Shown piece by piece: positions 38,140 through 54,831 of a stretch of DNA of 64,000 nt. The notes below the pieces were generated by a model. The model did no database searches. It was given only the letters and a program-made list of their open reading frames with translations, and was not told where the DNA came from. The stretch comes from an uncultured delta proteobacterium. GTDB lineage: Bacteria > Desulfobacterota > RBG-13-43-22. The translations under genes and the position numbers were made by a program. Numbering within the stretch: position 1 is the first letter of the stretch; each line of letters opens with the position of its first letter. The stretch spans positions 800,001-864,000 of the forward strand of contig CAWBOS010000012.1 in the NCBI GenBank assembly GCA_963790475.1. Direction: 5' to 3'.

Positions 38140-38637
38140 ATGGACCGGTACTCTATTCGAGATACTCAGAAAAAAGAAAATAACATAGCGGAAATACTTG
38201 AAGGATTTGATATCAAATCGGATGGACTGATTCCTATGCTTCAGGCTGTCCAGGGGGTTTGGGGTTTTCTGCCGAAACCGGCTTTTCCGGAAATAGCCCG
38301 TTTGATGAAATTATCGGTCGCCGAGGTTTTCGAGACGGCCTCATTTTATTCTCAATTCCGATTTGAACCGACCGGGAAATATCTCGTCCGAGTCTGTTGT
38401 GGAACGAACTGCCATATTCAAGGGTCAGAGCGGATTTTAGAAGATATTCAAAATCATTTATTAGTGTCTCCGGGAGGGACTACGAAAGACAGATTATTTA
38501 CCCTGGAGACCGGTTACTGTTTTGGTTCCTGTGCTCAGGCCCCCGTTATGGTCGTCGAGGATTCCGTTTACCCACGTATGAATCGCTTCAAAGTTCAAAA
38601 AATTTTAAATGCAATAGGGATAAGGGAGAAAGGATAA
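38140..38637 (+). CDS. NuoE/HydC-like (2Fe-2S) thioredoxin-fold subunit
   Basis: ASFYSQF; CCGTNC...CFGSC..AP. Confidence 0.9.
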   Translation: MDRYSIRDTQKKENNIAEILEGFDIKSDGLIPMLQAVQGVWGFLPKPAFPEIARLMKLSVAEVFETASFYSQFRFEPTGKYLVRVCCGTNCHIQGSERILEDIQNHLLVSPGGTTKDRLFTLETGYCFGSCAQAPVMVVEDSVYPRMNRFKVQKILNAIGIREKG

Positions 38638-38753
38638 ATGATCTAAAACCAACAAGGACATAATCCGGATCCGGTAGGGGCTTTTTAACTTACCCAAAAG
38701 GTGTTTTGAAGCTCTTCGGGAGAGGCTCTTTATTCAATAAGGATATTAATAAA

Positions 38754-40511
38754 ATGATCAATAATATTCCCACGGTTTGTAGCTTCTGTAATACAGGGTG
38801 CGGGATGTTTGTTCGCAAGGGGGGGGAGGAAGCGGTCGGGATTCTTCCCATCATCCGTCATCCGGTCAATGAAGGACGTCTCTGTCAGCGGGGATGGAAC
38901 CGCTACCAAAATCTGAGAAGTATGAATCGCCTGACCCATCCCCTGACCCGAAGGGGCTCCCGATTAGGAAAAACAGGGTGGGATGAAGCCCTCCAGATCA
39001 GCAAAGAAAAGATTTCCTCTATTCTAAACCTGTATGGCCCTCAAGCCATAGGCGTTATCGGATCCCCCTGGTTGACGAACGAAGATAATTTTCGCGTCTC
39101 TCTTTTTTGCCGTCAGGCGCTTAAAAGCAATAACCTGGACGGAAGTTACCGATTCGGCGGCGCAGCGGCCCTGACCGCCTTAAATGATACCTGGTCCGGG
39201 GCTCTGGGATCTTTGGCTTCTATACAATCCCTAAAAGAAAGTCCGGCTATTTTGGTAATTGGAAGGGAGAGCCTGCGTGATTTCTCTCCGGTTGGGGCCC
39301 AAATGATTCAAGCCTATCAGCAGGGGTCCAAACTCATTTTGGCAGATCCCACCTGTCTCCAGGCCGAAGGCTTTTTTAATGCTTTTCTACCTTATCCGGC
39401 GGACAAACTTGCTCACATGTTTAAAGGAAAAAAAGAAATAGCGGAGGACCTGGTCCGGCTCCTGGCCCAACCGGAATCAGCTATCGTGTTTATTGCCGAT
39501 CAAATAAAAACGGCCTCCAGTCTGTTGAGTCTCCTCAGTGTTATTTCGCAGGATCGCCCCGACTCCCAGACGATTCCCATGATGATCCCTCTGAGCCGCT
39601 CTCCGAATCTCCGGGGGGCCTGGGACATGGACATAAAACCTAAAAACGGGGGATTAACCCTCCAGGAGATGCTGGATCTTCCCAACGTGATAAAGGGTCT
39701 TCTCGTTTTTGGTGATGATCTGCTCAACCACCTCCCCTCATTCGCCTTTATGGAAAAACTGAAAAACCTTGAATTTCTGCTGGTCGCGGATCGTTTCCTC
39801 ACTGATACGGTACAGATTGCTGATTGTGCCTTTCCAATTCCTGTTCTGGCCGAAGGGACAGGGACTCTGACCAATTGCGAAGGAAGGGTCCAACAACTTC
39901 GTCCGGTTTTAAGTCCAAAGGAAGAGATTCGCCCCCTCTCCTATCTGCTCAGTTCTTTATCCCGAAAGTTGGGGATTAACCTCCCCGCGCAGTCGGATAG
40001 AGATGTGAGAAAAGAAATCAGCCGGGCCATTCCTCATTATCAAACTATCAGTGACGAATCAGAACTGGATTCATCCCAGGGTATCGTCCTGTCCTCTGTT
40101 AATCACCCGGCCATACCATCGGTCCCCTCTGAAACGCGGGAAGGTCCACAAGAACCGGGGAAATATCGCCTTTTCATTCCCAACACCTTATACGCCTGGA
40201 ATCGGAATCAAATGATTTTGGACTCTCCCCTTCTAAAGATCGAGTATCCGGAAGACCGGAAGGCCCTAAGAATGAACCGCCAGGATGTCCGGGATCTCAG
40301 ACTTCGTCCCGGTGAAAAAATTAAGGTGCGCTCAGAGCATGGCGATGCACAAATAGGCGTGGAAATAGACGATACGCTTCCTCCCCGGACCCTGGTGTTG
40401 CCCATGCATTTTTCAACCGTTATAGAAAATTTAGCCGGAAAAAGGGAATTTGATCATATAACCAATTATTCGTACTGTCCGGATCTATCGGTAACCCTGG
40501 AGAGAGTCTGA
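38754..40511 (+). CDS. FdhF/NuoG-like molybdopterin-oxidoreductase-fold protein with a 4Fe-4S motif but no Mo-ligand motif
   Basis: CSFCNTGC...GRLC, TNED and GTLTNCEGRVQ. The FDH active-site segment reads NNLDGSYRFGG instead of NNxDxxxRx(C/U)H. Confidence 0.82.
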   Translation: MINNIPTVCSFCNTGCGMFVRKGGEEAVGILPIIRHPVNEGRLCQRGWNRYQNLRSMNRLTHPLTRRGSRLGKTGWDEALQISKEKISSILNLYGPQAIGVIGSPWLTNEDNFRVSLFCRQALKSNNLDGSYRFGGAAALTALNDTWSGALGSLASIQSLKESPAILVIGRESLRDFSPVGAQMIQAYQQGSKLILADPTCLQAEGFFNAFLPYPADKLAHMFKGKKEIAEDLVRLLAQPESAIVFIADQIKTASSLLSLLSVISQDRPDSQTIPMMIPLSRSPNLRGAWDMDIKPKNGGLTLQEMLDLPNVIKGLLVFGDDLLNHLPSFAFMEKLKNLEFLLVADRFLTDTVQIADCAFPIPVLAEGTGTLTNCEGRVQQLRPVLSPKEEIRPLSYLLSSLSRKLGINLPAQSDRDVRKEISRAIPHYQTISDESELDSSQGIVLSSVNHPAIPSVPSETREGPQEPGKYRLFIPNTLYAWNRNQMILDSPLLKIEYPEDRKALRMNRQDVRDLRLRPGEKIKVRSEHGDAQIGVEIDDTLPPRTLVLPMHFSTVIENLAGKREFDHITNYSYCPDLSVTLERV

Positions 40512-40512
40512 G

Positions 40513-41583
40513 ATGGAAAGATACAGTCTTCGGAAAGACGCTCTGAATGCCTGGATTGAAGCGATGCTGGACCACCGTCAAGTTCTGGCCCCCTCCCGCA
40601 TTGAGCAGGAAATTTTTTTCAAGCCCGTAGAAATCGCTCCGGATCAGGAGTTGCTGGAGGGGACGGCCGTTCTTCCTTACCTGCCGCCCAAAGATATTGT
40701 TTTTCCCCAGTCCGAAATCATGTTCTCTTTCTCCGGCGAGGGGGAAGAGTTGAGTCTGGAAGTTCCGGGGGGATCAGAGACAAATTCTGTCATCTTAGGC
40801 ATAAGACCCTGCGATACCCGGGGTATTTCTTGGCTGGACCATTTTTTTTCGGAAAATTTCGACGATTTCTATTATTCCCGCAGGAGGGACAAGGTCGCTC
40901 TGGTTACCATTGCCTGTAACCAACCGGGAAAGAACTGTTTTTGCATCTGTTGTCAGGGGGGGCCTTTCCTGGAACCCGAAAGTGAGGAATGTGACATCCA
41001 ACTTATATCTTTCCAAGACCGATATCTGGTGGGATGTCAAAGCGCCCGGGGGAAAGAACTGATCAATATGCGGCCTGAGCTCTTTTCCAGCCCTGAGGCC
41101 GGCAGTGAAGAAATTTGGTCCAATCTGGAAGAAGAGTCCCGAAAGATGTTTTTCCCGGACCCTACCTCCTATATGAGCACGGCCATCCGCCGGATCACTT
41201 CAAACGAAGTCCCTTCGGAGGTCTGGACGGAATTGGGAGAGCGATGTTTTGATGACGGGGGTTGTTCCTTTGTCTGTCCCTGCTGCAGTTGTTTCGGAGT
41301 CGGTTACCTGGCCAACGGCGAAAAGGGATGTCATTACCGATACTGGGATTCTTGCGATTATTCAGGTTTTACCCGGGAGGTTTCCGGACATAATCCCAGG
41401 ATGGATAAAGGCGAGCGGTTCAAAAGGAGATTTTTCCATAAACTCAGTTATCAATATCTGAAAAAGGATGGAAGGATCGGTTGTGTGGGCTGTGGAAGGT
41501 GCATCACCGTCTGTCCTGGGGACATAGGTATGCCCCAGGTGGTCGAGAGAATTCGAAAGGCCCAGGCCGGACGGGAACTTTAA
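40513..41583 (+). CDS. AsrA/HydB-like 4Fe-4S dicluster protein
   Basis: GIRPCD, C...CFC, CFDDGGCSFVCPCCSC, WDSC and CVGCGRCITVCP motifs. Confidence 0.88.
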   Translation: MERYSLRKDALNAWIEAMLDHRQVLAPSRIEQEIFFKPVEIAPDQELLEGTAVLPYLPPKDIVFPQSEIMFSFSGEGEELSLEVPGGSETNSVILGIRPCDTRGISWLDHFFSENFDDFYYSRRRDKVALVTIACNQPGKNCFCICCQGGPFLEPESEECDIQLISFQDRYLVGCQSARGKELINMRPELFSSPEAGSEEIWSNLEEESRKMFFPDPTSYMSTAIRRITSNEVPSEVWTELGERCFDDGGCSFVCPCCSCFGVGYLANGEKGCHYRYWDSCDYSGFTREVSGHNPRMDKGERFKRRFFHKLSYQYLKKDGRIGCVGCGRCITVCPGDIGMPQVVERIRKAQAGREL

Positions 41584-41825
41584 ATAGAAATTAAACCCTA
41601 CCCTCATGTGGGAGTATATCAGGGAAGAAAGTGCCATAGCAGGGCAACTGACTTGAAAACACGGAATATCACTCTCCTGTCTAGGAATCTAATTCCGCAT
41701 CAGCGGGACTGGACCCCGGCCTTCGCCGGGGTGACGAGCAATCCGATTTTCGGAAGTGACCGGAAGCTCGCAAAAATTTTTTCGATGTTGATTGGCTAAT
41801 CAATAAGAGGGGTAAAAATTAAATT

Positions 41826-42656
41826 ATGGATAATGGCTACATTCCCCAGTTGGCTCGGATTGTCGAAATCCAAACGGAGACCTACGATACCAAGAGTTTT
41901 GAGTTAGAATTTGTCGAGTCCCAGGGGAAAGACGAATTCCGATTCAAACCCGGCCAATTTGTTGAAGCCTCGGTTTTGGGTGTGGGGGAAGCCCCTTTTG
42001 GCCTGTCCTCTAATCCGAATCACCCTTCAACTTTCCGGATCACGGTTCGGGCAGTCGGTTCCGTAACCCAGGCCCTTCACCAGCTTAAAGCCGGAGATCG
42101 GATAGGGATTCGGGGCCCCTTCGGAAACGGGTTTCCTTATGATGGAGTCAAAGGGAAAAATATTCTCTTCGTTGGGGGCGGTATCGGACTCCCCCCCCTC
42201 CGATCCCTTATCGAGCCCATGCTTGAAGCCCGATCGGATTTCAAGGACATTCAGATCCTTTACGGTGCCCGCACCCCGGCCGACCTTGTCTATAAGGACC
42301 GTTTGGTGGAGTGGGCTAAAATGAAGGACCTGAGATTCATGATGACCGTGGATGTGGGTGACCCCACCTGGACCGGCGATGTCGGGGTGGTGACTACCCT
42401 CTTTCCTAAAGCGGACCTTAAGGTGGATGATTCCGTGGCCTTCGTCTGCGGTCCTCCTATTATGATTCAATTTGTCATTAAAGGACTGATCCAGCTGGGT
42501 GTCCATCCGAAAAATATCATCTCCACCCTGGAGCGCTATATGAAATGCGGGATCGGAAAATGCGGACATTGTGCCATTGGCCATAAATATATTTGTCTGG
42601 ACGGACCGGTTTTTTCCTATCAGGAGATGCTGAAGCTACCGGAAAAAGTAGTTTAG
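41826..42656 (+). CDS. AsrB/HydG-like FAD/NAD(P)-binding (2Fe-2S) subunit
   Basis: FKPGQF, RGPFGNGF, GGGIGLPPLR, CGPPIM and MKCGIGKCGHC...C.DGPVF motifs. Confidence 0.92.
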   Translation: MDNGYIPQLARIVEIQTETYDTKSFELEFVESQGKDEFRFKPGQFVEASVLGVGEAPFGLSSNPNHPSTFRITVRAVGSVTQALHQLKAGDRIGIRGPFGNGFPYDGVKGKNILFVGGGIGLPPLRSLIEPMLEARSDFKDIQILYGARTPADLVYKDRLVEWAKMKDLRFMMTVDVGDPTWTGDVGVVTTLFPKADLKVDDSVAFVCGPPIMIQFVIKGLIQLGVHPKNIISTLERYMKCGIGKCGHCAIGHKYICLDGPVFSYQEMLKLPEKVV

Positions 42657-42662
42657 AAGGGG

Positions 42663-44693
42663 GTGAATACCGTGTGGACCCTGAATGCTTTGATTGTCAC
42701 CGTTTTAGCGGGGATACTTCTCATTGCCATTTTCGCCCGATCCCGTCGAATCTGCGGGCTGATCGGGGTGGTCACCGTAGGGGTCATCACCGGGATCATT
42801 AGTTATATATCCTATCAAGTCTTTACGGTCGGGCCTCTGACCCTTGAGCCCATTTTCTCCATCCTTGCTCTGGGGGCTGATTTCTCAATCGGTGTGGACT
42901 ATTTGAGCGCCGTCTTTTTACTGCTGATCGGGGGCCTGTCCTTTTTAGGCACCCTCTATTCCTATCGTTATATGGACCACTACGCCACCCAGTCCCTGTC
43001 CCGCTTCTACCATTGTTTGATTCTCTTTATCGTCGGCATGATCGGGGTGGTCTGTCTGACTGATTTGTTTTTCTTTTTTGTCAGTTGGGAATTCATGACC
43101 CTTTCCTCCTACTTTTTGGTGACTTATGAAAAAGAGGATCCCGTTAACCTCAGGGCCGGTTTCAAATACTTTCTTATGACCCATATCGGTACCGCCGCCA
43201 TGTTCATCGGGGCCTTGATCCTGCAAACCGAGGTAGGGTCTTTTGCCTTTTCCCGTCTGGGAGAATCCATGGCCGGCATGATGGGGACCAGTCCGGTCAA
43301 ACTCTCTATTATTCTGGGCCTCTTTCTCTTAGGATTTGGGACCAAGGCGGGAATGTTCCCGGTTGGAACCTGGTTGCCTGACGCCCATCCCGCCGCCCCC
43401 TCCGGGGTTTCGGCCATGCTCTCCGGGGTGATGATTAAAATGGGCATCTACGGTATTTTTCGTTTCTTCTTTTTCCTCCTTCCCCCGTCGCCCTATTCCG
43501 TGGCCTTCGGCATAGCCATCGGGGCTCTCGGTGCCATCTCCATTTTCATGGGAACTATCTCCGCCCTCCTTCAGCATGACTCCAAGCGATTACTGGCTTT
43601 TCATTCCATCGGCCAAATCGGGTACATTCTTTTAGGCCTGGGGACCGGACTGGTATTCCTTAGGGGCTACCCCGCCCTGGCTATAACGGCTACCTTGGGG
43701 GGAATGCTTCATGTGTTCAACCATGCCCTTTTTAAAGGGCTCCTCTTTTTAAACGCCGGCTCCATACTTTATAAAACCGGAACGAGGGATCTAAACAAAC
43801 TCGGCGGGCTTTATTTTGCAATGCCCATTACGGCCTGGACCACCCTCATAGCCTCCTTTTCCATTGCCGGCCTGCCTCCTTTCAACGGCTTTATAAGTAA
43901 ATGGCTCATTTATGAGACGACGATCTTAGGGGGAGTTCAAAACCCTCTATTTATCCTTTTCGGTCTGATAGCCATTTTCATCAGTACGGTTACCTTGGCC
44001 TCCTTTATAAAATTTTTCACCACTGCCTTTAGCGGAGAAATGGATAAAACTCTGGCCAACAATCTTCTGCCTGGGGTTGATGTCCCTTTTTCCATGCAGC
44101 TTCCCCAGGTCATCCTGGCCTTTTCCTGTCTCTTTTTCGGTATTTTCCCCTGGATACCGCTCAAGATGATGTATTGGTCTTTAACGGGTTCCGCTTTTGG
44201 TTCCCATTTGCCGGCTCTGAACGATATCTTCGGCAGCTCCATCCTCGGTCTGACCTTGAGTCCGGGGTGGCCCCTGGTCGGTTCCTGGCTCCCCATCCCC
44301 GGGGTAATCCTCATGTCCGGCTGCTTCTTGCTGGCCTTCTGGATATCCAGGATGGCCAGACCGGTCAAGCGAACCGTTCCCCTTTGGACCTGCGGAGAGG
44401 TCTTTGAACCCAAGGAGATCAGATTTCCTGCGGAAAATTATTATGTTCCTCTGGTTTCCCGGTTCGAAGGATTAATCTATCCCGAATCGCCTTTGGACAG
44501 GATAAAATCTCCTCAAAAAATTTACAGAGGGCTGGATTTAGATGAGGTTCTTTATTATCCCCTAGCGGACCTGGTGGTTCGTATCTTTCAGAAATTCCGG
44601 AAGAGCCATGTGGGGACTCCGCAGGTTTATTTGCTTTATCAAGTGATAGGGATTTTAATTTTAGTGGCGGCCATGCTTATCTGGCTTTATTAA
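42663..44693 (+). CDS. hyfB: Hydrogenase-4 component B-like antiporter (Mrp/NuoL-type) membrane subunit
   Basis: WEFMTLSSY, KAGMFP..WLPDAHPAAPS, NHALFKGLLF and GLPPFNGFISKW motifs. Confidence 0.85.
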   Translation: MNTVWTLNALIVTVLAGILLIAIFARSRRICGLIGVVTVGVITGIISYISYQVFTVGPLTLEPIFSILALGADFSIGVDYLSAVFLLLIGGLSFLGTLYSYRYMDHYATQSLSRFYHCLILFIVGMIGVVCLTDLFFFFVSWEFMTLSSYFLVTYEKEDPVNLRAGFKYFLMTHIGTAAMFIGALILQTEVGSFAFSRLGESMAGMMGTSPVKLSIILGLFLLGFGTKAGMFPVGTWLPDAHPAAPSGVSAMLSGVMIKMGIYGIFRFFFFLLPPSPYSVAFGIAIGALGAISIFMGTISALLQHDSKRLLAFHSIGQIGYILLGLGTGLVFLRGYPALAITATLGGMLHVFNHALFKGLLFLNAGSILYKTGTRDLNKLGGLYFAMPITAWTTLIASFSIAGLPPFNGFISKWLIYETTILGGVQNPLFILFGLIAIFISTVTLASFIKFFTTAFSGEMDKTLANNLLPGVDVPFSMQLPQVILAFSCLFFGIFPWIPLKMMYWSLTGSAFGSHLPALNDIFGSSILGLTLSPGWPLVGSWLPIPGVILMSGCFLLAFWISRMARPVKRTVPLWTCGEVFEPKEIRFPAENYYVPLVSRFEGLIYPESPLDRIKSPQKIYRGLDLDEVLYYPLADLVVRIFQKFRKSHVGTPQVYLLYQVIGILILVAAMLIWLY

Positions 44694-44775
44694 GGGATGG
44701 GAAATTCCTTTAAAAGGGATTTTTCTTAATCAAAATTTTTAAGCTTAATTAATTAATGAGTATAAGGAGAAAGAA

Positions 44776-46461
44776 ATGGCCTTTGAAAACGGCGAAAAAT
44801 TAATGGTCCATTTAAGGGAAAAATTTCCAACAGAGATAATCTCCGCCAGGGAATGGGTCCCAATGAAAGTTTTCATAACCATCCGCCGGGTATCCATTCG
44901 ACCCCTGGCCGAATATATCTTCCGCGGTTTGGGGGCCCGGTTTAATACCATCGTCGGGATGGATCGGCGGCCCACCCATGGGGATTTTCAAACCACTCAT
45001 ATTTTTTCCCTCGATTCGGACAAACTTTTTGTCCTGCTCCAGTCTTCCATACCTCAGGACCAGCCGATGATCGACTCCGTCACCCCCTTGATCCCGGGGG
45101 CCAATTGGGCCGAAAGGGAAATCCGAGATCTGGTGGGGATCAACTTTGCCGGTCATGGGGACCCCCGCCGTCTGGCCCTTCCGGATGACTGGCCGGAAAA
45201 CCTTCACCCGCTGCGCAGGGATTTTGTCTATAATTTTCGCCCTGAACCAGTCGAGGGGCAGGCTCCCAAACCGGTTGAAGCACCCGGAAAGGCCACGGTA
45301 TTTCCTATCGGCCCCTTCTTTCCGGTATTGGAGGAGCCGGCGGCCTTCCGGGTCTTCCTGGAAGGGGAAACCGTGGTAGGCTGTGATTATCGTGGTTTTT
45401 ATAACCACCGGGGAATTGAGAAAATTGCCGACTCGGTTCTGACCTATAATCAGATTCCCTTCATCGCCGAGCGTATATGAGGCATCTGAGGGTATATTCA
45501 CAGTACGTGTTACTGTGAGGCCGTTGAAGAAGCTGCTGGGATTGAGGTTCCTCCCCGGGCCCGGTATATCCGGAGCATTTTACTGGAGCTGGAGCGCCTT
45601 CACTCCCATCCCCTCTGGCTGGGGATCGGGGGTCATGTTTTGGGATTTGACACGATTCTCATGCAGACCTGGCGCATACGGGAACCGGTGATGTGGCTTT
45701 GTGAGCAGATCACCGGGAACCGGAAGACCTATGGTATGAATCTGATCGGGGGTGTCCGCCGGGACATTACCCCGGAGATGAAACCCAAAATTTTAGAGGT
45801 CATCGATCATCTGGAAAAGGAATGGTTGAAGGTGATCGAAGCCATCAGTGGGGATACGCCCCTGATGATGCGTCTCAAAGGCGTTGGGGTGCTCAGGCAT
45901 GAGGACGCCGTCGACTTTTGCGTCACCGGGCCTACGGCCCGGGGGTCCGGTGTGGCCATCGATTCCCGGGTTGATCATCCCTACGCCGCCTATGGGGATC
46001 TGGTTCCGGAAAAAAAGGTCCATGAAGAGGGGGACATCCTGGCCCGCACCCTGGTTCGCCTGGAGGAGACCCTGGAGTCCGTCCGTCTGGTCCGCCAGGG
46101 GATCCAGGAAATTCCCGAGGGCCCGATTATGGCTGACATCCCTGAGGAAATCCCCGCCGGACGGGAAGGAGTCCGGGTGGTTGAAGCGCCTCGGGGGGAA
46201 TCGATGCATTATGTGCTGACCGGGGAGAACAACCGTCCCTACCGCTGGAAAGTGAGGGCCCCGACCTATATGAATCTGGAGTCAGTGGCGGTAATGATTC
46301 AGGGGCTTGAACTGGCCGATGTTCCTATCGCCATAGCCAGCTATGACCCCTGCTTTTCCTGTACCGAACGGTTAGAGGTGGTGGATCGTCAAAGCGGAAA
46401 AATTCGTATCTATACTCATGGCCAACTGGTCCAACTGAGCCGGGACAAAAGGAATAGGTGA
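44776..46461 (+). CDS. Group 4 [NiFe]-hydrogenase large subunit (HycE/HyfG-type NuoC-D fusion), 561 aa with two in-frame TGA (candidate Sec235 and Sec238) in motif L1
   Basis: ORFs 44776-45480 and 45640-46461 share a frame. The gap reads HRGIEK...AERI-U-GI-U-GYIHSTCYCEAVE...ELERLHSH with no other stop. C-terminal DPCFSCTER plus an extension. Confidence 0.9.
45497..45519 (+). promoter_or_regulatory. Candidate bacterial SECIS element for the hydrogenase UGA codons
   Basis: tcacagta-CGTGT-tactgtga, perfect 8-bp stem plus a U-G pair. Loop is 16 nt after the second UGA and 25 nt after the first; G at loop position 2. Confidence 0.72.
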
Positions 46462-47369
46462 AAATGAACAACATCATCACTTCAGCCTTGATAAATTTGC
46501 TTCTGGTAATCCTGGCCGCCCCTTTTTATGAAGGTATTCTGCGAAAGCTCAAGGCCTTCGTTCAATCCCGTCAGGGACCTCCGCTTCGGCAGCCTTTTTG
46601 GGATCTCTTAAAGTTGTTGGGGAAAGAAAACCTTCAGGTCACCCGAAACCCCATTTTTTCACTGGCCCCCATTATCACCTTCGGAAGCGTCCTGATGGCG
46701 GCTTTATTTGTCCCCATGGGCTCGGCCCCTCCTTTCGGATTTGCCGGTGACCTGATTGTCCTGATTTATCTTCTCACCCTGGCCTCAGTAGGGGTCATGC
46801 TGGGAGGGTCTGTTTCAGGAAGTCCTTACGGGGTAATCGGGATGGGCCGGGAGATGATGTTGGCCATGATGGTCGAGATCATTGTTCTGGGAAGCCTGAT
46901 CGTCGGGGCGATGCAGACCAAGTCCTTTGACTTAGGACAAATCTCATCCTGGTATCGAAAAGCCGGCCCCAATCTTTCTATGATCGTGGCGGCCATCCCC
47001 TTCCTGCTCTGTCTTCAGGTTCTAGTCGGCAAAATCCCCTTTGACCTTCCTGAGGCCGATCAGGAAATCATGGGAGGCCCTTTTGTGGAGACCCCAGGGG
47101 CCCGGCTGGCCCTTTACAAGTGGAGCTATTTCGCCAAACAGATTATCTGGGCCTCAATCTTTTGGGAAATTTTTATCCCCTGGCCCAAAACCGGATATTA
47201 TCCTCTTGATCTGATCATTCATCTGATAAAGATTTTAATAGTCCTCCTTCTGGTCGGATTGGTTGATGCGGTAAATCCTCGTCTCCGGGTAGATCAGGGC
47301 ATACGGTATTTTTCCGGTATTTGGATAATCCTAATTCTGGCTGTGGCTTTTGCCGTGATCGGAGTTTAA
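46458..47369 (+). CDS. hyfC: Hydrogenase membrane subunit HyfC/HycD (NuoH-like)
   Basis: RKLKAFVQSRQGPP..QPFWDLLKL, PFDLPEADQEI and PRLR motifs. Confidence 0.88.
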   Translation: MKMNNIITSALINLLLVILAAPFYEGILRKLKAFVQSRQGPPLRQPFWDLLKLLGKENLQVTRNPIFSLAPIITFGSVLMAALFVPMGSAPPFGFAGDLIVLIYLLTLASVGVMLGGSVSGSPYGVIGMGREMMLAMMVEIIVLGSLIVGAMQTKSFDLGQISSWYRKAGPNLSMIVAAIPFLLCLQVLVGKIPFDLPEADQEIMGGPFVETPGARLALYKWSYFAKQIIWASIFWEIFIPWPKTGYYPLDLIIHLIKILIVLLLVGLVDAVNPRLRVDQGIRYFSGIWIILILAVAFAVIGV

Positions 47370-47395
47370 TAGGATGCGTAATAACCTTTTTATTA

Positions 47396-47520
47396 CAGGT
47401 TGCTCAAAAAGGCCCAGATACAAGGCGCCTGAAACTCCGAGGAACGAGTCGTACATAGACGTACGGCGCAGTGAGGAGGGGTGAGGGCAACGCAGTAGAT
47501 GGACCTTTTTCAGCAACCTG
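47396..47520. mobile_element. MITE-like element with caggttgct(c/g)aaaaagg TIRs, flanked by TTA/TTA
   Basis: Near-perfect 17-bp TIRs; related copies at 48728-48852 and 52471-52588. Confidence 0.7.
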
Positions 47521-47536
47521 TTAGGAAGGTGATCCA

Positions 47537-47983
47537 ATGTTCAAAAGCAAAATGAAGGAAGCCATCATCTGCTTTAAAGCCGGGCGGGTGACCGCCCCCT
47601 TTCCTTTGGGGCCTGAGCCGAATCCTCCCCAGGAGGGCTATCGGGGTAAGATCGCCGTGGATGTAGAAAAATGTATCGGCTGCGGAGGTTGTGCCAATGT
47701 TTGTCCGCCCCGCCTGATTAAAATCACCGATACCGACCAAACCCGCGTCCTCGAATATTTCCTGAGCCGTTGCACCTATTGCGGTCGATGTGCCGAGGTC
47801 TGCCCGGAGGAGGCCATTACCATGACCCGGGAATACCAGTTGGCGACCAATGATGTGAACGACCTTTATATCCGGTCCGAGCTTTATATGGGGACCTGCG
47901 GACGGTGTGGACGATGCTTTAAGCCCAAAACCATTCTCGACAAAATGATGGTGACCGGATTTCAACCAGGGGATTTATCCTAA
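47537..47983 (+). CDS. Hydrogenase 2x[4Fe-4S] subunit HyfH/HycF (NuoI-like)
   Basis: YRGK; CIGCGGCANVCP; CTYCGRCAEVCP; extra CGRC. Confidence 0.9.
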   Translation: MFKSKMKEAIICFKAGRVTAPFPLGPEPNPPQEGYRGKIAVDVEKCIGCGGCANVCPPRLIKITDTDQTRVLEYFLSRCTYCGRCAEVCPEEAITMTREYQLATNDVNDLYIRSELYMGTCGRCGRCFKPKTILDKMMVTGFQPGDLS

Positions 47984-48025
47984 ATCAGGCTATAACCTTC
48001 AAAAGGTAGAAACGGACAGGAAAAG

Positions 48026-48691
48026 ATGGAACCTTGGACTAAACTTATCTCCGCTTTGAGTCTTTCGCTGATTCTCACGGCCTACCTCATCATCGAGATA
48101 AAAAACCTGCGCTATGCGACCTATGTTTATATCCTCCAGGCCCTTTTGATGTGCAGTCTCTTTTTGGCTTACGCCGGCCAAAACCCCAGGCTCTATTACT
48201 GGGCCTTGACCGCCTTGGTTACCAAGGTGTTTATTATCCCCTTTATGCTTTTGCGAACCATCCGCCGGACCAAGGTCCTGGAAGTTCCTCCCGTGATCGG
48301 GTACTTAGGATCCATCATCTTCCTTACCGTGGTCATCGTTATTTTTTACCGCCTTACGCATAAATATGTTGATTTCATCGCCCCCACTCCCCTGGCCACC
48401 CAGGAGCCTTTTCGGACCAATCTGGCGGTAAGCCTGGCCCTGTTTGTCATGGGGTTATATTGCATCCTGGTCCGGAGAGATGCCATCAAAGCTGTTCTGG
48501 GGCTTACCATTTTACAAAACGGGGTTCACCTCTCACTGGTCACCCTGGTCCCCCTGCTTGAAGAAACCGGCGTTATCGGGATCGTCACCGATCTGGTCAT
48601 CGCCGTCGTTCTCTTGCTCTATATTACCCAGGGGGTTTACGAGAAATTCGGATCAACGGATACCTTCAACCTTAAGGAACTTCGATGGTGA
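48026..48691 (+). CDS. hyfE: Hydrogenase-4 component E-like membrane protein
   Basis: Multi-TM 221 aa with TKVFIIP and QNGVHL motifs; operon position. Confidence 0.8.
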   Translation: MEPWTKLISALSLSLILTAYLIIEIKNLRYATYVYILQALLMCSLFLAYAGQNPRLYYWALTALVTKVFIIPFMLLRTIRRTKVLEVPPVIGYLGSIIFLTVVIVIFYRLTHKYVDFIAPTPLATQEPFRTNLAVSLALFVMGLYCILVRRDAIKAVLGLTILQNGVHLSLVTLVPLLEETGVIGIVTDLVIAVVLLLYITQGVYEKFGSTDTFNLKELRW

Positions 48692-48727
48692 AAAATGGAG
48701 ATTAACAGGTTGTGGAAACCCTTTTTG

Positions 48728-48852
48728 CAGGTGGCTCAAAAAGGTTCAGATGCAAGGCGCCCGAAGTTCCTTGGCATGAGGCGTAGTTTAATCTACGTCG
48801 GAATGACAAGGGATGAGGGCAACGCCGCAGATGGGCCTTTTTCAGACACCTG
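48728..48852. mobile_element. MITE-like element (second copy of the 47396-47520 family)
   Basis: caggtggctcaaaaaggttcagatgcaaggcgcc...gagggcaacgccgcagatgggcctttttcagacacctg. Confidence 0.7.
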
Positions 48853-48859
48853 TTAAGGA

Positions 48860-50359
48860 ATGTATAATATGGACTGGGAAATCCTCTATCTTTTGCTGGC
48901 CCCCACCTTGACCGGATTTTTTATTTTTATTTTTGGGAAAAAGTCCTTTTATTGGAGTGAAGGACCGGCTCTCTTAGGGTCGGCTATCACCTTGGGCTTC
49001 TCGGGCTGGATTTTTCTTCAGACCACACGAGGTGAAGTTCTATCATTCTATCGTGATGAATTCAGGGTTGACGCCTTGAGCGGGTTGATGGTTGGGCTGG
49101 TGGCCTTCCTCGGTTTTATAGCCATTATTTATTCCTTTTCTTACATCCGGAAAGAAGTGGTCGAGGAAGTCATCCCACCTGAGAAATTACATTCGTATTA
49201 CGGTTGGCTGATGCTTTTTCTGGCCTCCATGCTCTGGGCCGTGACCACCAACAATGTTTACCTTCTCTGGGTAGTTATCGAAGGTACCACCTTGGCTTCG
49301 ATTATCCTGGTATCCTTCAACTGGTCCCGGGAGGCCCTGGAGGCAGGTTATAAATACGCCCTGCTTTTGACCGTAGGGATTACCTTTGCCCTTTTTGGCT
49401 GCATTCTCCTCTATGCCGGATCTTCCCCCCATATTCCCCCGGGACTGGATCCACTCAAAATCAGCGAGATTGCCAAGGTGGCCGGGAAGATACCTCGGAG
49501 CATTGCCCTGGTGTCGGTCATTCTTCTCTTGGCCGGTTTTGGAACCAAGGCGGGTGTTGTCCCTTTTCACACCTGGCTTCCGGATGCCCATGCCGAAGCC
49601 CCTACCCCGGTCAGCGCCCTGCTTTCCGGGATCATGATCAAGGTGGGGATTTATGCGGTCATTAGAACCGTTCTGATCTTCTATTCTTTTTATTCCGTCA
49701 TCAGCCTTCTGGTCCTCATTCTCGGGGTAATAACCATGATTGTGGGCCTGGTGATGATGTTCCTCCAGGACGATGCCAAACGATTTTTAGCCTTTTGCTC
49801 CGTGGTCAGTGTGGGATATATATTCATGGGCCTGGGCCTGGGCAGTTATTTGGGGATCTATGGGGCCATATTTCATCTGATCAATCATTCCCTGATGAAG
49901 GCCCTGGCCTTTTTGTCTCTCGGTGGAGTGATTTATGCCACCCGCTGTCGGAAGATATCCGAACTGGGGGGGGTGGGAAAATTGATGCCGGTAACCGCTT
50001 TAACCTTTTACGTTTCGGCCCTGGCCCTAAGCGGCATCCCCCTGTTTAATGGATTTGTCAGCGAGTTTACCATCTTTCTGGCCGGAGTGAAGGCCGGTTA
50101 TTTGTGGGCGACGATCATCGCCATCGTGGTGTCTGTTCTGACTCTGGCGGCCTTTATCCGGGTCAGCGCTCGGATATTCATGGGGACCCTGCCTCAGAAT
50201 CTGATGAATTTGCCGATCCGAGAAGTTCCACCAACCATGTGGGGAGGGGAAATTCTCCTGGCTGCCCTCTGTATATTGATCGGGGTCTATCCTCAGTTGA
50301 TTTATCAAGTCCTTCATGAGGCGACCAAGGCGATTTTTGCGATGATGCCCATGCCTTAA
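48860..50359 (+). CDS. Hydrogenase-4 component F/D-like antiporter membrane subunit
   Basis: WVVIEGTTLAS, ALEAGYKY, GTKAG..PFHTWLPDAHAEAPTPVSALLSG and NHSLMK motifs. Confidence 0.85.
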   Translation: MYNMDWEILYLLLAPTLTGFFIFIFGKKSFYWSEGPALLGSAITLGFSGWIFLQTTRGEVLSFYRDEFRVDALSGLMVGLVAFLGFIAIIYSFSYIRKEVVEEVIPPEKLHSYYGWLMLFLASMLWAVTTNNVYLLWVVIEGTTLASIILVSFNWSREALEAGYKYALLLTVGITFALFGCILLYAGSSPHIPPGLDPLKISEIAKVAGKIPRSIALVSVILLLAGFGTKAGVVPFHTWLPDAHAEAPTPVSALLSGIMIKVGIYAVIRTVLIFYSFYSVISLLVLILGVITMIVGLVMMFLQDDAKRFLAFCSVVSVGYIFMGLGLGSYLGIYGAIFHLINHSLMKALAFLSLGGVIYATRCRKISELGGVGKLMPVTALTFYVSALALSGIPLFNGFVSEFTIFLAGVKAGYLWATIIAIVVSVLTLAAFIRVSARIFMGTLPQNLMNLPIREVPPTMWGGEILLAALCILIGVYPQLIYQVLHEATKAIFAMMPMP

Positions 50360-50369
50360 AGGGGGGAAC

Positions 50370-50882
50370 ATGTTAAAAAAATTAATCGATAAGGCCCAGT
50401 TCAAATCACTCTGGGTCTACCATGCCAATACGGGTGCCTGCAATGGCTGTGATATCGAGGTGATTAATGTCTTGACCCCCTATTATGATGCGGAACGTTT
50501 TGGAATCAAGCTGGTTGGCTCACCCCGTCATGCCGATGTTTTGCTGGTTTCGGGCCCGGTGACCCGACAGGTGGCCCCGGCCTTGCTTAGGCTTTATGAG
50601 GCCGTCCCCAGTCCAAAATTGGTGTTTGCCATCGGGGGCTGCCCTTCAGGAGGAGGAATGTTTTTTGACAGTTATGCCACCTTGGGGGGGTTGAACAAAG
50701 TCATCCCGGTTGACTTTTATATTCCCGGATGCCCGCCCAGGCCAGAGGCGATCCTCTATGGCGTAGCCGTGGCCTTAGGTCTGGCCCCTAAAAAAACGGC
50801 CCCCATCATGTCTTCCCAGGTCTTTCCGGAGGAGATTCTTCAAAAAATCGAACAAGGGGAATTAATCCATGAACAAAAATAG
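50370..50882 (+). CDS. Group 4 hydrogenase small subunit HyfI/HycG (NuoB-like)
   Basis: GACNGCDIE, SPRHADVLLVSG, GGC and PGCPPRP motifs. Confidence 0.92.
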   Translation: MLKKLIDKAQFKSLWVYHANTGACNGCDIEVINVLTPYYDAERFGIKLVGSPRHADVLLVSGPVTRQVAPALLRLYEAVPSPKLVFAIGGCPSGGGMFFDSYATLGGLNKVIPVDFYIPGCPPRPEAILYGVAVALGLAPKKTAPIMSSQVFPEEILQKIEQGELIHEQK

Positions 50883-51810
50883 AATCCTCTCTTATTGGGC
50901 AACCGCCGTTTTTATTGTGGCCTTTTTGGGATTGGGGGTCGGCTGTAAAATGGCTAAACCCTATAAAGGAGAGGCAAAGATTCTGGTTGCTCCTGCTCCT
51001 TTTTCCCTTTCCATGGTAGAGGCCCGATTTTTATTTTTAACCGATTACTTGACGGAACAAACGGGTTGGAAGATAGAAACTGTCGTCGCCCCCTCCAGCC
51101 TGGATGAGTTTCTTAAAATACTTAGCGCTCAAAAGATAGCCTTTTCCTTTCAAAACCCTTATTTCTATCTCTATCTGGCCGAAAAACACGGGGCAGTCCC
51201 CTTAGTCAAGACCGTCTCTCTGGACGGCTTAACGGAATTCCGGGGGATGATTATCGCCCAAGAAAAAAGTCCCATCAAATCGCCGGGTGATTTGATCGGC
51301 AAAAAAATCCTGGTTTCCGATCGTAACTCTGTGGGTGGATTTTTAGCCCAATATATGCTTCTCAAGGATTTTGGATTGGATCCGGAAAAAGAATTGATTT
51401 TTTCATTCGGAGACACACAGGAAAAAATAATGGAAAAGGTGGCCTTGGGGCAGGCGGAAGTAGGATTTATCCGGGAAGATGTGCTTCAGTCCATGATCCG
51501 GGCCAAGGGGAGCATGACCGGAGTGAAGGTCATCGCCTTAACCCCTTTCCATCCTACCCATTGTCTGGTGAGCTACCCCAAGACGGATCCGGTTCTGAGC
51601 GAAAAGGTAAAAACAGCCCTACTAAATTTAACTCCCGAGAATCCTTCCCATCGATTTATCCTGGAACGTTTGAGGATTTCCAGATTTACCCAGGCTTCCG
51701 CTGAAGAATACCAGACCTTCAAGAAGGTCCTTATGCTCCACGGGCTTTTCGTTCCTGGTCCGCTCTCTAAGTTGAAAGAGCAGGAGACAAAAGGTGATCC
51801 CGGTCTTTAA
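50869..51810 (+). CDS. PhnD-type (phosphate/phosphite/phosphonate family) substrate-binding lipoprotein
   Basis: Lipobox (LGVGC); FRGMIIA..SPIKS..DL.GK and D.NSVGGFLA motifs; overlaps the small-subunit gene. Confidence 0.75.
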   Translation: MNKNRILSYWATAVFIVAFLGLGVGCKMAKPYKGEAKILVAPAPFSLSMVEARFLFLTDYLTEQTGWKIETVVAPSSLDEFLKILSAQKIAFSFQNPYFYLYLAEKHGAVPLVKTVSLDGLTEFRGMIIAQEKSPIKSPGDLIGKKILVSDRNSVGGFLAQYMLLKDFGLDPEKELIFSFGDTQEKIMEKVALGQAEVGFIREDVLQSMIRAKGSMTGVKVIALTPFHPTHCLVSYPKTDPVLSEKVKTALLNLTPENPSHRFILERLRISRFTQASAEEYQTFKKVLMLHGLFVPGPLSKLKEQETKGDPGL

Positions 51811-51822
51811 AAAGAGAAAAAA

Positions 51823-52347
51823 ATGCCGGACCATTACCCCCCGGACCTGAAAACCCTGGAGTCCTTTATTCATCCTTCCTATCCGGGTCGTGTCGTCACT
51901 CTGGGAGTAGGGAATCGGCTTCTGGGGGATGATGGAACCGGGCCTGAACTGGTGACCAGACTCAAAGAAAACTGGGAAGGGAGTGAAATACAGGACGATT
52001 TAAGGGGCAACCGATTTTTTATCGATGCAGAAGAAAATCCGGAGGATTGGTTTATCAGGGTCCTCGAACTTCAGCCGGCGGTCATCATAGTAATCGATGC
52101 CGTGGCCATGCAGGCCGAACCAGGGAGTGTGGCCGTGCTTGAGGCCCAGGCCTTGCCGGAAAGTCTCCTCTATTCCACTCATCGTTTGTCCCTCAGAAGT
52201 CTTCTTCAACTCTGGGAGGAAAACGGCTGCCGGGCCCTGGTCCTGGCCATCCAGCCGGAAACCCTGAACATCGGCCAAGGATTGTCTCTACGGGTAAAAG
52301 AGAGTATTAATCAACTTATCCATTTTCTTTCCCCCTGGTCACCTTAA
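51823..52347 (+). CDS. hycI: Hydrogenase maturation endopeptidase (HycI-like)
   Basis: LGVGNRLLGDDG.G, PE, IDA, STH.L.L and IQP motifs. Confidence 0.85.
   Translation: MPDHYPPDLKTLESFIHPSYPGRVVTLGVGNRLLGDDGTGPELVTRLKENWEGSEIQDDLRGNRFFIDAEENPEDWFIRVLELQPAVIIVIDAVAMQAEPGSVAVLEAQALPESLLYSTHRLSLRSLLQLWEENGCRALVLAIQPETLNIGQGLSLRVKESINQLIHFLSPWSP

Positions 52348-54737: not shown

Positions 54738-54831
<94 letters not shown>

Follow-up and report, generated by a model that had tools for sequence, protein, structure and literature searches.

A hydrogenase gene with two in-frame UGA codons

We analysed 64,000 nucleotides (nt) of DNA from an uncultured delta proteobacterium of the Desulfobacterota (assembly GCA_963790475.1, contig CAWBOS010000012.1, positions 800,001 to 864,000 of the forward strand; this whole stretch is hereafter the window, and positions are counted from its first letter). 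Within it lies a gene for the large subunit of a group 4 [NiFe] hydrogenase, which occupies one frame of the + strand (44776-46461) from an ATG at 44776 to a terminal TGA at 46459-46461. Under translation table 11 this frame is broken solely by two further TGA codons (45478-45480 and 45487-45489), in the stretch GAG CGT ATA TGA GGC ATC TGA GGG TAT ATT CAC, so that two open reading frames (ORFs) result, 44776..45480 (234 amino acids) and 45640..46461 (273 amino acids). A preliminary description of this DNA had read these as two halves of one frame, and the letters and the translation bear it out: with TGA translated as selenocysteine (Sec, U), the gene codes for a single protein, 561 residues long, whose stretch R-I-U-G-I-U-G-Y-I-H (residues 233-242) includes U235 and U238.

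The protein matches the Pfam families Complex1_49kDa (211 bits), Complex1_30kDa (87.6 bits) and NiFeSe_Hases (56.8 bits), and a phmmer search of the PDB aligns residues 6-560 to Escherichia coli HycE (7z0s_E, E 6.5e-129). In this alignment U235 and U238 fall on both cysteines (Cys) of RVCGICGFAHS, exactly the positions of the RxCGxC motif to which the preliminary description had assigned them. The N-terminal nickel motif RxCGxCxxxH (here called L1) is present provided that UGA is read as Sec or Cys, and the C-terminal DPCxxC is present with ordinary Cys codons: DPCFSC (residues 524-529) keeps both its cysteines, as had been described, coded by TGC (46351-46353) and TGT (46360-46362). Canonical [NiFeSe] hydrogenases (groups 1a and 3) are marked by Sec in place of the first Cys of the C-terminal motif, which then reads DPUxxC; this mark is absent here, the codon in question being the TGC at 46351-46353. 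By these sequence marks the gene is a HycE/HyfG-like large subunit of a group 4 [NiFe] hydrogenase. The narrower label, group 4b, rests on its match in motif, in details of the selenocysteine insertion sequence (SECIS) and in gene cluster to a class of UXXU-type group 4b [NiFeSe] hydrogenases that has been described from genome data (Takano et al., Front Microbiol 2026 (Sept), PMC13582414).

Conservation of the UGA codons and of the frame behind them

Orthologs were sought in 41 genomes (that of the organism itself and 40 relatives), then in genome contigs, which added 50 loci, and in metagenome contigs (80 loci). Three of the 41 genomes hold a full-length ortholog: two congeners, G009 (91% identity, two TGAs) and G010 (88%, one TGA), and a more distant relative, G034 (75%, two TGAs). 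Both TGAs are kept in orthologs at 62-91% identity. With U standing for TGA and C for a Cys codon at each of the two places, the 54 loci from genomes, among which some records were reached twice, comprise 10 UxxU, 2 UxxC, 2 CxxU and 40 CxxC forms, and the metagenome loci that hold the motif region (74 of 80) comprise 20 UxxU, 1 UxxC, 4 CxxU and 49 CxxC. Collapsed to 100 distinct regions of 81 nt, all loci together give 22 UxxU, 1 UxxC, 6 CxxU and 71 CxxC.

The ratio of nonsynonymous to synonymous substitution rates (dN/dS, Nei-Gojobori) was estimated between this gene and eight TGA-type relatives, other pairs being saturated at synonymous sites and giving no estimate. Downstream of the TGAs it ranges from 0.035 to 0.112 (seven of eight pairs estimable) and upstream from 0.075 to 0.25 (four of eight), so purifying selection behind the apparent stops is at least as strong as before them. 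Relaxed selection, which the preliminary description had named as a sign against recoding, is thus the opposite of what is found.

The letters themselves recur in sequencing data. A Logan contig of run X1, which comes from an independent assembler, shows 0 differences from the window over 45300-45642; X1 may be the source sample. Logan contigs of X2 and X4 also span the TGAs, and among the differences listed for them there is no change at these codons, though we claim identity for X1 only. From an RNA library (X17) came one contig of 214 nt (45571-45784) with 4 differences and one distant contig with 23 differences, which is no proof of transcription. Samples in which the gene occurs include freshwater sediment, wetland and soil.

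These data bear on whether the gene might be a pseudogene, or its TGAs assembly errors, with a truncated product of 234 residues or none at all. The frame is interrupted twice under table 11, and frame changes do disrupt at least one gene elsewhere in the assembly, namely the second copy of selA (contig C13, see below). However, 22 distinct homologous regions, drawn from many assemblies, share both TGAs, the low dN/dS extends downstream of them, the X1 contig is identical and the rest of the gene cluster is intact. Comparative data already contradict this explanation, which we regard as extremely improbable, and we have next to no doubt that the gene is a real recoded gene.

The UxxC form is that of the congener G010, which has TGA at the first place and TGT at the second, an identical hairpin downstream (see below) and a downstream dN/dS of 0.078; its three records (L045:3697-3777, L017 in G010, and L107) are probably not independent. 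In a quick tree, for which SH-aLRT was the only support measure, and from which duplicates (L045, L049 and L050, of L017, L018 and L016 respectively), partial sequences (L061, L078) and near-identical Photobacterium rows (L079-L089) were left out, G010 is nested with the organism's own genome and G009 (SH-aLRT 89), within a TGA-type clade of 100% support whose sister is a Cys-type sequence. This topology suggests that the bridging position went back from Sec to Cys in the G010 lineage.

A hairpin restricted to UGA-type genes

Downstream of the TGAs, positions 45498-45505 pair with 45511-45518 to form the hairpin of 8 base pairs (bp) with loop CGUGU that had been noted at SECIS spacing in the preliminary description, to which a G-U pair (45497/45519) can be added. 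The minimum free energy (MFE) of the 23-mer is -9.4 kcal/mol, and the loop G at 45507 takes the last place in a Thr codon, ACG. From UGA-1, the first of the two codons, to the loop there are 25 nt (45481-45505), and from UGA-2 there are 16 nt (45490-45505). The bacterial SECIS (bSECIS) model, as given in the legend to Fig. 2 of a 2026 review (PMC13188914), has a loop of 3-9 nt, an upper stem of 4-16 bp, a G among the first two loop positions, 16-37 nt from UGA to apical loop and an MFE of -7.5 kcal/mol or lower. The hairpin lies within all these constraints for both UGAs, with a loop of 5 nt, G at loop position 2 followed by U, and a stem of 8-9 bp, the spacing from UGA-2 being at the lower limit of the model. 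Each in-frame UGA also aligns with Cys in homologs (71 of the 100 distinct regions are Cys-type, as is HycE).

Comparison with homologs separates the hairpin from the peptide that it encodes. The stem ACAGUA...UACUGU is present in 29 of 29 TGA-type regions and in 0 of 71 CxxC regions; it is thus shared by the UxxU, UxxC and CxxU forms of the clade and found only where a TGA is present. The peptide HSTCYC is encoded in 27 TGA-type and in 23 CxxC-type regions. In the former its codons are fixed as CAC AGT ACG TGY TAC TGT, whereas the latter use codons freely (CAC/CAT, AGC/TCN, ACC/ACA/ACG, TGT/TGC, TAT/TAC, TGC/TGT). Since Cys-type genes encode the same peptide without the hairpin, the hairpin does not simply follow from the protein sequence. 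In TGA-type genes neither the stem nor the loop G varies, and the sole synonymous variation in the hairpin is U or C at the fifth loop base (45510; TGT or TGC, in 21 and 6 of the 27 HSTCYC regions respectively), a column that was noted likewise in L118, L120, L125, L168, L169, L173 and L179. Nine TGA-type genes were also compared codon by codon. Of 311 columns with a conserved amino acid and a degenerate codon, 19 show one and the same codon in all nine genes; six of these 19 follow one another and make up the hairpin, and no other run of such columns in the gene exceeds two. Fold energies of the 23-nt core range from -6.8 to -9.4 kcal/mol among the genome set's 10 distinct TGA-type sequences, as against a median of -1.2 and a minimum of -6.1 kcal/mol in 37 Cys-type sequences; one metagenomic CxxU region reaches -4.5 kcal/mol only. 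Judged by this comparative evidence, the hairpin is a SECIS element. An extended hairpin with UGA-1 at its base was also considered and was dropped, as it shows no covariation and its lower stem is not conserved; the core of 7-9 bp was kept.

With its loop 25 nt past UGA-1 and 16 nt past UGA-2, one element could serve both codons, and with the UGAs six nucleotides apart there is no room for a second hairpin between them. The hairpin and purifying selection in the UxxC congener suggest that the hairpin is able to serve UGA-1 alone at 25 nt, and the CxxU forms with the same hairpin are the converse case, UGA-2 alone.

It is conceivable that decoding is mixed or partial, with efficient Sec insertion only at UGA-2, at 16 nt, and with UGA-1 read poorly or by a near-cognate tRNA, so that most ribosomes would terminate and the enzyme would be gated by selenium supply. 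In E. coli fdhF the spacing between UGA and stem-loop is critical, and the CxxU forms (6 of 100 distinct regions) carry the same hairpin. Also, two Sec insertions three codons apart from one SECIS are so far a prediction for this class (PMC13582414, Discussion). Against this stand the two spacings, both inside the range of 16-37 nt, the UxxC congener, whose gene has UGA-1 alone, the same hairpin and the signature of purifying selection, and the predominance of UxxU, the commonest TGA type with 22 of 29 distinct TGA-type regions. We consider partial decoding quite improbable.

Selenocysteine machinery and the search for a cysteine-inserting tRNA

The genome (20 contigs, rated 100% complete) holds the Sec machinery whose presence the preliminary description had left to be confirmed. 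With 74.3 bits, tRNA-Sec (selC) is above the Rfam cut-off; its discriminator is G and its variable arm is long. The three protein genes also exceed their curated cut-offs (selA 629.5 bits, selB 390.6 bits, selD 394.1 bits). The selD gene (C10:1969676-1970587) itself holds one in-frame TGA and probably codes for a selenoprotein, which gives independent support for active decoding of UGA as Sec in this organism. There are two copies of selA, one intact on a 3.2-kb contig (C20:490-1848) and one (C13:443305-444664) split over four frame pieces with one TAA; the latter may be a pseudogene or owe its state to an indel in the assembly, or the two copies may be a single locus that was assembled twice. 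The window's sole tRNA gene, tRNA-Ser(CGA) (54738-54831, + strand), gives a sub-threshold match to the tRNA-Sec model due to its long variable arm.

The chief alternative to Sec, raised already in the preliminary description as SECIS-dependent decoding of UGA as Cys, is that one or both UGAs are read by a SelB- and SECIS-dependent tRNA-ReC (selC*), the product being an ordinary all-sulfur [NiFe] enzyme. Takano et al. (PMC13582414, Methods) define tRNA-ReC operationally as a tRNA of at least 80 nt whose anticodon is UCA or GCA and whose discriminator is U. They report tRNA-ReC-like genes in 2 of 6 Desulfobacterota genomes with a UXXU gene and in ~56% of all UXXU genomes, and give as a limitation of their study that Cys decoding is not excludable. 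The relative G034, whose gene is of the UxxU type, carries a tRNA that fits this definition (C170:20354-20447; L099:1502-1594): it has 93 nt, a UCA anticodon, a U discriminator and a long variable arm, and it stands beside a canonical tRNA-Sec (L095). This tRNA, together with the frequency of tRNA-ReC among UXXU genomes (PMC13582414), makes Cys decoding a live option for the class.

For the genome studied here the picture is different. No tRNA-ReC was found by aragorn (default and relaxed settings), by a scan with the Rfam model RF01852 or by blastn and nhmmer with the G034 tRNA as query, in a search that was not exhaustive, the RF01852 scan having scored 150 of 892 first-look candidates. Aragorn reports 50 tRNAs. 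Just one of them has a UCA anticodon, and its discriminator is G; just one is a credible tRNA-Cys, canonical in form, with a GCA anticodon and a length of 76 nt. The 10 matches to RF01852 are all accounted for as tRNA-Sec or as ordinary Ser, Leu, Trp, Tyr and Gly tRNAs. Relaxed aragorn runs were too noisy to use (197 calls at -ps90, 4512 at -ps80), and the three long 'Cys gca' calls, made at -ps90, fold poorly. With the G034 tRNA as query neither blastn nor nhmmer gave a significant match; the best nhmmer match (C12:797377-797442, E 1.8) was dismissed. The same kind of scan found no tRNA-ReC-like tRNA in the congeners G009 and G010. The Cys alternative thus stands for a relative, while its tRNA went undetected in this organism by a scan that was not exhaustive, and we regard Cys at one or both positions here as unlikely.

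The surrounding gene cluster

The large-subunit gene is part of a cluster of 13 ORFs (38140-52347; Table 1), all on the + strand and all open, so the operon, including its HycI gene, is intact as had been stated in the preliminary description. Three of the 13 ORFs, the large subunit included, end in TGA, which indicates that TGA is still a stop codon here and that there has been no genome-wide reassignment.

Table 1. Genes and sequence elements of the hydrogenase locus in window coordinates
Feature	Position	Strand	Basis
NuoE/HoxE-like thioredoxin-like [2Fe-2S] ferredoxin, first gene of the cluster	38140..38637	+	Pfam 2Fe-2S_thioredx 148 bits; NCBIfam NuoE-like below curated cut-off
Formate-dehydrogenase-like (Fdh-like) molybdopterin subunit without catalytic Cys/Sec-His, G-G instead	38706..40511	+	Pfam; FdhF alignments
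Sulfhydrogenase beta-like/AsrA-like Fe-S subunit	40513..41583	+	Pfam Fer4_22; NCBIfam HydB/ShyB/AsrA-like below cut-offs
Sulfhydrogenase gamma-like FAD/NAD(P)-binding subunit with [2Fe-2S] domain	41826..42656	+	Pfam NAD_binding_1, DHODB_Fe-S_bind, FAD_binding_6; NCBIfam ShyC/HydG/AsrB-like
HyfB-like antiporter-type membrane subunit	42663..44693	+	Pfam Proton_antipo_M/N; best NCBIfam hydrogenase 4 subunit B, 439 bits, below cut-off
Large (catalytic) subunit of group 4 [NiFe] hydrogenase, fused NuoC-like and NuoD/HycE-like, 561 residues	44776..46461	+	Pfam; HycE match; frame open with TGA as U
UGA-1, codon of first L1 Cys (by homology terminal Ni ligand)	45478..45480	+	HycE alignment; TGA in 23/100 distinct regions
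UGA-2, codon of second L1 Cys (by homology Ni-Fe bridging ligand)	45487..45489	+	HycE alignment; TGA in 28/100 distinct regions
SECIS-like hairpin, core stem 45499-45505/45511-45517, loop CGUGU 45506-45510	45497..45519	+	MFE; comparative conservation; bSECIS model
C-terminal Ni motif DPCFSC (C526, C529), followed by R532 and a 29-residue tail	46345..46362	+	Cys codons; HycE alignment
NuoH/HyfC-like membrane subunit	46458..47369	+	Pfam NADHdh 184 bits
2x[4Fe-4S] ferredoxin subunit	47537..47983	+	Pfam Fer4 families
HyfE-like membrane subunit	48026..48691	+	NCBIfam hydrogenase 4 membrane subunit 129 bits (cut-off 136); Pfam Oxidored_q2
Second antiporter-type membrane subunit	48860..50359	+	Pfam Proton_antipo_M 215 bits
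NuoB-like hydrogenase small subunit	50370..50882	+	Pfam Oxidored_q6; NCBIfam NuoB subfamily 150 bits, above cut-off
Phosphonate-type periplasmic-binding-protein-like ORF, 313 residues	50869..51810	+	Pfam Phosphonate-bd 156 bits
HycI-type maturation endopeptidase	51823..52347	+	Pfam HycI 47 bits; NCBIfam hydrogenase maturation protease 89.8 bits, above cut-off

Aligned to FdhF (7qv7_S) and to a Sec-type chain (9t1s_L), the Fdh-like subunit has 'yrfggaa' under 'arlchap' and 'arlxhsa' respectively. With this subunit devoid of its catalytic residue, and with a sulfhydrogenase beta/gamma-like NAD(P)H module in the same cluster, the complex is probably not a formate hydrogenlyase. Rather, it probably links H2/H+ to NAD(P)(H) and to ion translocation, a physiological reaction that we infer from the subunits present. 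The periplasmic-binding-protein-like ORF sits between the genes for the small subunit and the HycI-type protease, overlapping the former by 14 nt. Elsewhere in the genome, contig C4 holds hypD (476 bits), hypF (855 bits) and hypE (478 bits).

Probable selenium at the N-terminal nickel ligands

Together, the conservation of the two UGAs, the hairpin, the sel genes and the selection on the frame support in silico the candidate double-Sec group 4 hydrogenase of the preliminary description, and we think it likely that in this organism Sec occupies both UGA positions. The gene product would then be the catalytic subunit of a UXXU-type group 4b [NiFeSe] hydrogenase, a group 4 [NiFe] enzyme that is bound to the membrane and translocates ions. 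Both UGAs of the N-terminal nickel motif would be decoded as Sec, the single hairpin in the coding sequence acting as a SECIS that is bound by SelB carrying Sec-tRNA(Sec). By homology to HycE and general [NiFe] chemistry, the mature protein would have selenium at the terminal nickel ligand (U235) and at the Ni-Fe bridging ligand (U238), with sulfur at C526 and C529, and the cluster's HycI-type protease would trim the C-terminal tail.

Several points weigh against this assignment, in addition to the non-exhaustive tRNA scan of this genome and the second UCA tRNA of G034. The description of the UXXU class is purely in silico (PMC13582414), so that Sec is a prediction there as well, and engineered Cys-to-Sec variants of E. 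coli Hyd-1 each had lowered activity in solution (Evans et al. 2021, PMC8020662). Contamination of the assembly is rated at 9.68%, and none of the sel genes shares a contig with the window. Finally, the structure around the hairpin is in itself unremarkable: the 91-nt fold is ordinary when set against shuffled sequences (z -0.45, with 52 of 200 shuffles folding equally well or better), there is no compensatory change (0 of 20 pairs altered on both sides among 11 aligned sequences, 10 of them distinct), homologs do not conserve the lower stem of the MFE fold (70.9% of cells paired), and the paired fraction of the hairpin alignment (79.5%) equals that of shuffled alignments (mean 79.2%). Support for the hairpin comes from its invariance among homologs, and not from fold energy or covariation.

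If the lineage does lack a tRNA that reads UGA as Cys, we lean, with some reserve, towards a system in which one SECIS directs two Sec insertions nine nucleotides apart and gives a natural nickel site with both a terminal and a bridging selenium. Were both positions Sec, the enzyme would bear selenium at two nickel ligands that lack it in all characterised hydrogenases, and would have none at the C-terminal site that is its place in all characterised [NiFeSe] enzymes. This would bear on why selenium improves hydrogenases, with regard to O2 tolerance and H2 production, and on how one bacterial SECIS may serve two nearby codons. The UxxU, UxxC, CxxU and CxxC forms of the clade amount to a natural allelic series for the role of selenium at each N-terminal ligand and for the reach of a bacterial SECIS. 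Since the genome has the Sec machinery and no tRNA-ReC was found in it by the search described, it is a clean candidate for a protein-level test, and the value of the window is that of a test case, with a 100%-complete assembly, hypD, hypE and hypF, and close relatives that differ at one of the two positions only.

Comparison with known systems

The closest known system is the UXXU-type group 4b class of Takano et al. (PMC13582414), which comprises 47 sequences and includes 6 Desulfobacterota genomes and the phylum JAPLJL01. Our gene shares with it UGA at both N-terminal Cys positions, the retained C-terminal cysteines, a conserved loop G in third position of a Thr ACG codon, and the presence of selABCD, which is enriched in the genomes of the class; a single SECIS for both UGAs was suggested there too. 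The gene clusters also agree in content, those of the class having an Fdh-like subunit without Cys or Sec, SHI beta/gamma homologs, an antiporter and HyfC/HyfE-like subunits; about half of such clusters have an Fdh-like subunit without the catalytic residue. There is a link to the same phylum as well, one of our UxxU relatives (L047) coming from a record with a JAPLJL01 accession prefix. Nothing essential differs; tRNA-ReC, which our search did not detect here, was reported in 2 of their 6 Desulfobacterota genomes.

As this rare class is already in print as a prediction, the present gene is another member of it, not a discovery. The view of the preliminary description, that such an arrangement was not known from characterised natural enzymes, still holds, although the arrangement had been described in silico (PMC13582414); besides that paper we found no other report in the literature on group 4 UXXU hydrogenases or on group 4 tRNA-ReC. 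What is new is modest: a codon-level control of the SECIS, for which Cys-type genes encoding the identical peptide served; a UxxC form within the UXXU clade of group 4b, where the legend to the 4b tree of Takano et al. names CXXC, CXXU and UXXU only, though their supplement may already list it; and a complete genome with Sec machinery in which no tRNA-ReC was found by our scans, and which the same supplement may likewise already list.

E. coli HycE, the large subunit of the group 4a formate hydrogenlyase-1 (PDB 7Z0S/7Z0T), shares with our protein the fused NuoC-NuoD architecture, the motifs RxCGxCxxxH and DPCxSC, a HycI-type protease and the C-terminal tail. All four ligands are Cys in HycE, whereas the two N-terminal ligands are UGA-encoded here; the selenium of its complex is in FdhH, whereas here the Fdh-like partner lacks the catalytic residue and the cluster has an NAD(P)H module in addition.

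Canonical [NiFeSe] hydrogenases of groups 1a and 3, such as those of Desulfomicrobium baculatum and Methanococcus voltae, have in common with the present gene a Ni-Fe site and a UGA-encoded Sec ligand. In the bacterial enzymes of this kind, recoding is directed by a SECIS in the coding sequence. The canonical enzymes are soluble or periplasmic, and not complex-I-like membrane complexes. Their single Sec is the U of the C-terminal DPUxxC (PMC13582414, PMC8020662), a place for which the codon here is TGC.

Other UxxU selenoproteins have been predicted (table in PMC13188914), likewise with UGAs three codons apart and presumably one downstream SECIS; as far as that table goes, they are thiol-redox or metal-binding proteins, without a hydrogenase active site, and are predictions as well. 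An experimental parallel comes from E. coli Hyd-1, where Sec was engineered at each of the four nickel ligands, the N-terminal two included (Evans et al. 2021, PMC8020662); of these variants only the C-terminal C576U gave special O2 tolerance. That work shows that sites with Sec at an N-terminal ligand can be built, by artificial single substitutions in a group 1d enzyme, whereas in the present gene two Sec are predicted to occur naturally and together.

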